A DNA stretch of 32,000 nt from Candidatus Thorarchaeota archaeon (GCA_048882505.1 JBHLRO010000003.1:60001-92000); one strand, 5' to 3'. Shown: positions 23,733 through 24,455, numbered from the stretch's first letter. The notes: generated from the sequence alone by a model not told the origin. A program made the numbers and translations.

Positions 23733-24455
23733 CTATATATTCTCTTTGAACGAGCTTCTTAAATGCCTCTTAATCAATCTTATTGGTTCTGGTATTCGAT
23801 GAGTAAGTAATGATTGTACTAACGTAAGGATGCTTGACAGAGAGACTAAATGCCCAATAGAAACGTAAATTCCCTTGCTGAATCCCCTTTTTCTTATAAA
23901 ATATGCGATTTCTTTATTTAAATGACGAACAGGACATAATTCGTGGTTTGAATTTTCTTTAATATCAGTTGTTTCAGCTTGACCCCTAGCTATGGTACCG
24001 TATAGGCTATTTTTGGTAACCCCGAACGTAGGTACATTTAAATCCACCCCAATTTCACATGCTATCCCAAAAAATCGAGGATGCTGAACTCCTGCCCCTT
24101 CAATTAATATAATATCAAAATTTTCTTCAAAATGCTTGATAACTTCGATCAGGGGTTTTTTATTTCGAATGCTTAATAGTGAGGGAATGTAAGGGTATCT
24201 TGTCTTTCTGATCGGACAACTAAAAACTGTGCCATATCGATGGCTCTCTAGATCGTACAAGATTCCGCCGGCCTGAATCCGATGGTTCTTCTCAAAAGCC
24301 GCAACGGACAACAATCGTTGAAGGGAAGATTCAATTGGAACCTCCTTAACCAGATGCCGCATTTTATATTGGTATTCAATGTAGGATTTTGTCCACGGAA
24401 ACCTTCCGATAATCCTCAAATCATAAAGTGTAAATGGAACCTCTGAAGTGCTCAT
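23733..24455 (-). CDS. Endonuclease V homologue with degenerate catalytic residues
   Basis: YPYIPSLLSIRN, IEGAGVQHPRFFGIA, GVTKNSLYG, VSIGH and RIPEPIR match EndoV, but GVD reads SVA, FRE reads IRN and DGxG reads EGAG. Confidence 0.88.
   Translation of the reverse strand: MSTSEVPFTLYDLRIIGRFPWTKSYIEYQYKMRHLVKEVPIESSLQRLLSVAAFEKNHRIQAGGILYDLESHRYGTVFSCPIRKTRYPYIPSLLSIRNKKPLIEVIKHFEENFDIILIEGAGVQHPRFFGIACEIGVDLNVPTFGVTKNSLYGTIARGQAETTDIKENSNHELCPVRHLNKEIAYFIRKRGFSKGIYVSIGHLVSLSSILTLVQSLLTHRIPEPIRLIKRHLRSSFKENI

Follow-up and report, generated by a model that had tools for sequence, protein, structure and literature searches.

The biological role of endonuclease V (EndoV), considered a conserved nuclease from bacteria to humans, is debated, above all where RNA is concerned. 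Canonical forms (Nfi, PF04493), among them T. maritima TM1865 (2W35/3HD0) and the E. coli protein (4XPU), have an RNase H-like fold. In the T. maritima enzyme, D43, E89, D110, and H214 make up the metal-binding active site; among 36 mutants, D43A, D43C, and D43H were the only ones to lose inosine-dependent cleavage even with Mn2+, and binding-defective mutants were those of Q20, H116, R118, R205, and glycines (PMC3025561). The segment P79-Y80-I81-P82 serves as a wedge, and the lesion pocket comprises G83, L85, G111, G113, G121, and L142, where hypoxanthine is read through backbone atoms only (PMC4650699).

Disabled forms of the enzyme, namely the T. maritima mutants D43A (2W36), E89Q (6OZG), and D110N (6OZF) and the Ca2+-loaded EndoVIPER and EndoVIA, still recognize and hold inosine-containing nucleic acid (PMC4650699; bioRxiv 10.1101/2025.09.29.679362). 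The 2W36 structure is a complex with inosine DNA in the lesion-recognition state (PMC4650699), and EndoV in which Ca2+ replaces Mg2+ binds inosine RNA without cutting it (bioRxiv 10.1101/2025.09.29.679362). These laboratory binders carry one change each, and most are still metal-bound. Farther afield, the PIWI/Argonaute proteins (A. fulgidus Piwi/AfAgo: 1YTU, 2W42, 8OK9) are remote relatives of EndoV in fold. Inactive PIWI/Argonaute proteins keep an RNase H-like fold minus the DEDX tetrad, and act as nucleic-acid binders that recruit effectors.

The crown Hodarchaeales count among the archaea known to be most closely related to eukaryotes. Here, we analyze P0001, an EndoV homolog of this group that a preliminary description had proposed to be a pseudo-nuclease able to bind inosine-containing nucleic acid without cutting it. 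P0001 belongs to the same family as canonical EndoV and shares its Tyr wedge, glycine-lined pocket, HPR loop, PEP motif, and DNA-binding residues; it differs in its metal ligands, in newly invariant residues, in an insertion, and in its scores against equivalog models. In contrast to the laboratory binders, all four ligands of P0001 have been replaced naturally, lysines having come in at or beside two of the positions, and selection has fixed the replacements in the lineage. A literature search on natural catalytically dead EndoV or Asgard EndoV found nothing relevant.

Gene, family membership, and predicted fold

The window, by which we mean the whole 32,000-nucleotide stretch of DNA that was analyzed, comes, to judge by the source names of its closest proteins, from an Asgard archaeon of the Heimdall group (Hodarchaeales); the genome that contains it is labeled G000. 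The gene for P0001, a triad-less EndoV homolog of 240 aa, lies at 23733–24455 on the minus strand and is the single EndoV gene of this genome. Its ORF of 240 codons is intact, with zero internal stops. The protein matches PF04493 (Endonuclease_5) over residues 56–227 with an E-value of 7.6e-37 and 127.3 bits, the curated Pfam cut-off being 23.4 bits, and it scores far below both NCBIfam equivalog cut-offs: 104.2 bits against 230 for NF008629 (deoxyribonuclease V), and 99.9 bits against 300 for NF041102 (EndoV Thermococcales type). Public records call the proteins of its clade "endonuclease V," "deoxyribonuclease V," or "hypothetical protein," or leave them nameless; the first two labels are probably wrong as statements of activity.

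The motifs by which the protein had been recognized are all in place. From the N terminus, these are Q29, LLSVAAF (48–54), PYIP (88–91), SIRN (95–98), IEGAG (118–122), the loop G120-x-G122-x-x-H125-P-R127, GVTK (145–148), VSIGH (198–202), PEP (222–224), and RLIKR (226–230).

An AlphaFold2 model built from a 120-sequence alignment has a mean pLDDT of 93.9 and a pTM of 0.91, and drops below 50 solely in loop 159–162. In a Foldseek comparison with the PDB, ranks 1–35 are EndoV structures throughout; the top match is T. maritima EndoV (TM 0.79–0.87, rmsd 2.0–2.2 Å, about 216 columns), and E. coli and mouse EndoV are also among the best. The model thus assigns P0001 an EndoV-type RNase H-like fold. 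Argonaute and PIWI domains occupy ranks 38–50 as distant relatives; in contrast to P0001, they form another family, depend on a guide, and have no base-flipping pocket, such that the likeness is one of analogy and not of membership.

A conserved clade without the canonical metal ligands

The residues of the T. maritima enzyme map onto P0001 as D43 to A52, E89 to N98, D110 to E119, H214 to K229, and K139 to K148. We derived the mapping from phmmer against PDB chains 2w35, 2w36, 6ozg, and 3hd0, from MAFFT alignments of 9, 158, and about 175 sequences, and from a profile–profile comparison (hhalign) of the triad-less clade with canonical EndoV; the outcome is identical for all alignment methods, which we count as four. 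The three catalytic acids therefore read Ala, Asn, and Glu in every alignment, as had been read from the motifs, and the C-terminal metal-site Asp/His said to be missing is indeed absent, with K229 aligned to H214. P0001 naturally carries Ala at the position mutated in 2W36; in the phmmer alignment the 2w36 chain likewise has Ala opposite Ala52.

When 1.84 billion representatives were searched exhaustively with HMMER, 3,132 family members emerged, and the best-scoring of these after the query itself were triad-less, every one. With EndoV genes cut from 83 genomes of the same class added to the tree set, the triad-less sequences (n = 22) form a single clade in a maximum-likelihood tree (SH-aLRT 94), and those with a source name come without exception from Heimdallarchaeota or Hodarchaeales. 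The substituted pattern thus marks a conserved monophyletic clade, which can be divided into 2 sub-types based on the residues at the four metal-ligand positions. The first, A/T/S-N-E-K (xNEK), has 17 sequences, that of the window among them; the second, S/T/Y-Y-P-R/K (xYPR), has 5, one of them from "Candidatus Hodarchaeum mangrovi." The xYPR genes adjoin the same hydrolase genes as the xNEK genes, so the two are positional orthologs.

The clade evolves under constraint. The dN/dS between the P0001 gene and its 78%-identical relative in genome G061 is 0.205 (NG86) or 0.24 (YN00); five other triad-less pairs give 0.16–0.21, and canonical EndoV pairs within the same genus give 0.15–0.30. The clade values of 0.16–0.24 are on a par with the canonical ones, are far from 1, and point to purifying selection. 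P0001 has lost its catalytic residues within a clade that is under such selection, and is a pseudo-nuclease in that sense.

A decaying gene, or an assembly or sequencing artefact, would also present as a loss of catalytic residues, and that loss is all that speaks for such an explanation. Against it, the reading frame is unbroken; independently assembled genomes have yielded about 22 sequences with this pattern, at 29–78% identity; dN/dS is about 0.2; the synteny of the triad-less gene is kept across 15 genomes; and the fold is predicted with high confidence. We consider this explanation to have practically no chance of being right, in agreement with the preliminary description, which had argued against sequencing error and recent decay.

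Replacement of the canonical gene and history of the locus

The window's GTDB-level genus has 22 genomes. The triad-less form is the only EndoV in 15 of these (the single-contig G058 and G056 among them), and canonical D-E-D-D/H EndoV is the only form in 6 that branch early (G049, G052–G055, and G060). No genome has both forms, and one, which is 71% complete, has neither. We looked for the second, active nfi that had been raised as a possibility: there is no second PF04493 match in G000, which is 94.6% complete, and no second nfi in the 14 other triad-less-bearing genomes, one of which is a single-contig assembly of 4.9 Mb. The triad-less form stands in for canonical EndoV, not alongside it, a relationship that the preliminary description had not foreseen.

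In a tree of PheRS-alpha, three canonical bearers branch off at the base of the genus and 11 triad-less bearers make up a fully supported crown, with G060 (canonical) and G063 (triad-less) between base and crown; this branching order is provisional, because PheRS-alpha is a single marker. Positional orthology between the two EndoV forms was considered and ruled out: the canonical loci of G049, G052–G055, and G060 have no neighbor in common with the triad-less one over a distance of about 8 kb. The syntenic site itself can be followed through the genus. The basal G053 and G054, whose canonical gene is elsewhere, have only a 71-aa ferredoxin gene between the lipase-like and membrane hydrolase genes, and the site holds no EndoV remnant in either genome. 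In G060, whose canonical gene is also elsewhere, the same hydrolase-flanked site holds the ferredoxin gene and a small zinc-ribbon gene. Most xNEK-type loci have the triad-less EndoV gene at this site, followed by the zinc-ribbon gene, with the ferredoxin genes upstream in locus L002. By the AU test, a grouping of the triad-less clade with the canonical EndoV of the genus itself is not rejected (p 0.44); the triad-less form may have arisen by duplication or by transfer, either of which is compatible with the EndoV tree.

The 71-aa ferredoxin, of the 2x[4Fe-4S] type, marks, at L079:7600-8360, L080:5380-6140, L002:5315-5909, and L081:813-1163, the site that holds the triad-less gene in crown genomes. 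The ferredoxin-only locus of G053 and G054 shows this site in a clean "empty" state, against which the insertion could be dated.

A refilled metal site

We compared residue conservation in the 22 clade members with that in 151 canonical sequences, and each position named below was placed by the alignments and a codon check on the minus strand. At the position of D43, P0001 has Ala52 (24300–24302); the clade has A/T/S/Y here, and 98% of canonical sequences have D. Asn98 stands at the position of E89 and is followed by Lys99 (24159–24164 for both codons). Position 98 is N in 94% of xNEK, Y in 100% of xYPR, and E in 98% of canonical sequences, and Lys99 is present in 100% of both sub-clades while variable in canonical EndoV. 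Glu119 (24099–24101), at the position of D110, is E in 100% of xNEK and P in 100% of xYPR, as opposed to D in 87% of canonical sequences. Lys229 (23769–23771), at the position of H214, is K/R in 100% of the clade, where canonical EndoV has H (65%) or D (30%). Finally, Glu134 (24054–24056), at T. maritima H125, is a clade-specific acidic residue: E/D in 100% of both sub-clades versus H in 70% of canonical sequences. The residues newly fixed in the clade are Lys99, Ala121, Gln124, Glu/Asp134, Thr147, Gly195, and Lys/Arg229. As judged by alignment, the former catalytic positions have been refilled with newly fixed residues and not merely emptied, which was unforeseen. Both the Lys-rich refilling of the metal site and the mutual exclusion with the canonical gene are specific to the Hodarchaeales clade.

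Other acidic residues might have taken over the metal site, a possibility that had been stated at the outset. The sole acidic position common to the entire clade is 134. No carboxylate of the old site is shared throughout, because the xYPR sub-type has Tyr98 and Pro119, and none of its positions is conserved as acidic clade-wide in the alignments. Glu55, a candidate for a compensating acid near Ala52, was ruled out, as relatives have Q, A, or D there. By contrast, one residue has relaxed: the "conserved Lys" of GVTK, which corresponds to the phosphate-contacting K139 of T. maritima, is present in P0001 as had been described, but its conservation does not extend to the xNEK sub-clade to which P0001 belongs, where it is K (59%), Q (29%), or R (12%).

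Four metal ligands replaced, conservation across the clade, dN/dS of 0.16–0.24, and the absence of a second nfi agree with the earlier reading that canonical nuclease chemistry is gone. We regard the loss of Mg-dependent chemistry in P0001 as very probable and well supported, because the checks on clade, selection, copy number, and acidic residues were all favorable.

Loss of the canonical chemistry can be reconciled with an enzyme of another kind, in which a rebuilt center of Glu119, Glu/Asp134, Asn98, Lys99, and Lys229 processes nucleic acid at the flipped base, be it as a one-metal or metal-free phosphodiesterase or through a different reaction. The strict conservation of N98, K99, E119, Q124, E/D134, T147, and K229, with no sign of drift, is what such a center would display; 15 genomes have the protein in place of canonical EndoV and lack a second copy, as would suit a functional substitute; and G000 has no match to NucS (PF01939) or AAG/MPG (PF02245). 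The conservation in xNEK (N98 at 94%, E119 and K229 at 100%) and the new invariant residues count against a purely binding role, since they fit a remodeled active site too. Several features nevertheless make a rebuilt enzyme unlikely in our view. The position of the first-strand Asp is an unconserved A/T/S/Y, and loss of this residue alone kills T. maritima EndoV (PMC3025561); the Tyr98 and Pro119 of xYPR leave one clade-wide acid, at 134; the phosphate-contacting Lys148 varies among K, Q, and R; and neither His nor other residues usual in metal-free RNases have been gained.

The retained binding surface

The PYIP wedge (residues 88–91; 24183–24194, minus strand) and the pocket loop G120-A-G122-V-Q124-H125-P-R127 (24075–24098, minus strand) were assessed by conservation counts. 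Tyr89 of the wedge is found in 100% of the triad-less clade and of the canonical sequences. In the loop, G120, G122, H125, P126, and R127 are kept, and 2 swaps are clade-specific, A121 for canonical H/Q/N and Q124 for canonical A. Conservation within the clade is 94–100% for Q29, Y89, L94, R97, G120, G122, H125, R127, G130, G145, L151, and R/K220, the equivalents, in the same order, of T. maritima Q20, Y80, L85, R88, G111, G113, H116, R118, G121, G136, L142, and R205. P0001 has S92 at the position of G83, where the clade has S/T/G, as does canonical archaeal EndoV. By sequence, then, the hypoxanthine pocket and the H116/R118 loop residues are kept. The clade proteins are basic (pI about 9.4–9.6), and their specific insertion, which is 8–12 residues long and follows the LYG motif, falls at residues 155–170, in a region of low model confidence.

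The same surface could serve a non-catalytic binder of something else: another flipped base, a mismatch, a flap, an abasic site, a modified purine, or, as a scaffold, a protein. The ligand may not be hypoxanthine, because the pocket-loop side chains A121 and Q124 are changed; Pro91 of the wedge is Ser in 59%; the clade has an insertion of its own, modeled with low confidence; and searches of the genome revealed no enzyme that would supply inosine. On the other side, the glycines that read hypoxanthine and the equivalents of L85 and L142 are all kept (PMC4650699), and canonical archaeal EndoV can likewise have S/T where the T. maritima enzyme has G83. Another ligand is therefore a doubtful reading, with enough behind it to be reckoned with.

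A grip on a flipped deaminated purine would be the most economical account of a wedge, a pocket, and binding residues that have all been kept, and catalytically disabled or Ca2+-loaded EndoV sets an experimental precedent for it. With somewhat better than an even chance of being right, we infer both the binding and its ligand: P0001 would be a non-cleaving binder of inosine or hypoxanthine that replaced the nuclease, and its binding is probably metal-independent.

Genomic neighborhood and cellular context

Directly downstream of the P0001 gene is an ORF for a 75-aa zinc ribbon with a CxxC...CxxC pattern (23326–23553, minus strand). It lies directly downstream in 9 of 16 triad-less loci, is degraded in 2 more, and is missing from 5, including the xYPR-type locus of G048; G060 has the zinc-ribbon gene at the syntenic site with no EndoV gene there. 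An obligate partnership is rejected, as each gene occurs without the other. The search for a partner or pathway for P0001 found none, the zinc-ribbon ORF being the only candidate partner in the neighborhood. This ORF matches no Pfam family and no PADLOC family. Its own family is conserved (51–84 aa), with the invariant pattern C-P-D-C...G...F-K-C-x-x-C-x-x-E; homologs occur in 11 of the 22 genus genomes counting G000, two of them degraded, and almost without exception follow the triad-less EndoV gene immediately. On the NCBI contig of a relative the ORF is uncalled, with no gene annotated between 6723 and 7242 of L003.

The flanking genes encode a membrane-anchored alpha/beta hydrolase, RidA, two more hydrolases, an epimerase, and a ferredoxin; none of those flanking P0001 has a link to nucleic acids, and PADLOC, which would have pointed to a defense role, gave no matches. 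Divergent from the EndoV gene, at 24566–26341 on the plus strand, is a gene for a 591-aa protein in which a serine alpha/beta hydrolase is fused to a long polytopic membrane domain; it is kept at the same locus in basal and crown genomes.

We searched G000 for an enzymatic source of inosine. PF02137 had no match, in a search whose control was also silent. PF14437 matched in 20 of the 22 genus genomes (not G056 and G068), and its presence does not track the EndoV form, because all six canonical bearers are also matched. ARAGORN found no A34 tRNA gene in G000 without intron mode and two dubious ones with it. Thus, the deaminase and A34 tRNA searches, with the PF02137 control silent, detected no enzymatic inosine source in this genome.

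The sole PF14437 match in G000 (G000:C2:427259-427702, minus strand) is a 148-aa deaminase of the CDA fold with HAE...PCxxC motifs, and by sequence looks like a dCMP deaminase. ARAGORN reported 39 tRNAs in G000 in intron mode, as opposed to 19 otherwise; introns are thus present in many tRNA genes of this genome. A tRNA-SeC (anticodon TCA) is predicted, as is, in intron mode, a doubtful tRNA with a TTA anticodon.

Proposed mode of action and implications

In the mechanism that we propose, P0001 would be an EndoV-derived pseudo-nuclease that has kept an EndoV-like fold and a nucleic-acid binding surface. The Tyr wedge would pry the strands apart, and the glycine-lined pocket would take up flipped hypoxanthine or a similar deaminated purine. 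The residues of the Mg2+ site (D-E-D-H/D) have given way to Ala52, Asn98, Glu119, and Lys229, together with the newly fixed Lys99 and Glu134. To judge from their sequence positions, Lys99 and Lys/Arg229, balanced by Glu119 and Glu134, may fill the old metal site, such that two basic side chains would themselves grip the phosphate on the 3' side of the lesion. We propose this Lys/Glu network because the clade fixed new residues while the Lys equivalent to K139 relaxed. Inosine DNA or RNA would then be clamped stably without metal, and hydrolysis would be impossible. In crown Hodarchaeales, such a protein would probably act as a sensor of a lesion or modification that marks the site, shields it, or hands it to another factor.

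In this lineage, selection has maintained the recognition half of EndoV, and the cutting half and the canonical copy have both been lost, which shows that recognition by itself is worth retaining. The triad-less clade provides a natural experiment on the cellular effects of EndoV binding in contrast to those of cleavage. A much bolder claim, that the crown Hodarchaeales swapped an inosine-cutting EndoV for a dedicated, metal-independent inosine reader, strikes us as very unlikely as it stands. If it were true, inosine in RNA (tRNA) or DNA would be a signal that is used or tolerated, not simply removed, and P0001 would be the first natural inosine reader, as well as an affinity reagent needing no Ca2+ trick. 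Current methods for inosine enrichment and imaging employ EndoV with Ca2+; a natural binder that does not cleave, and is possibly metal-independent, would be useful for both.

Other EndoV-like proteins with altered catalytic positions

A second, very divergent EndoV-like protein is encoded in two genomes that belong to a different family of the same class (G033:C166:5088-5564, locus L049; G034:C180:30340-30822, locus L048). These proteins score about 65 bits to PF04493, sit on a tree branch of 3.3, and have Y-E-L-H at the catalytic positions, with His for the conserved Arg before the Glu; they may represent an independent loss of the active site. The representative library also contains P0013, a eukaryote-like protein of 1285 aa that is rich in low-complexity sequence and has three tandem EndoV domains, the second of which has Ala for the first catalytic Asp and is degenerate in its other motifs.
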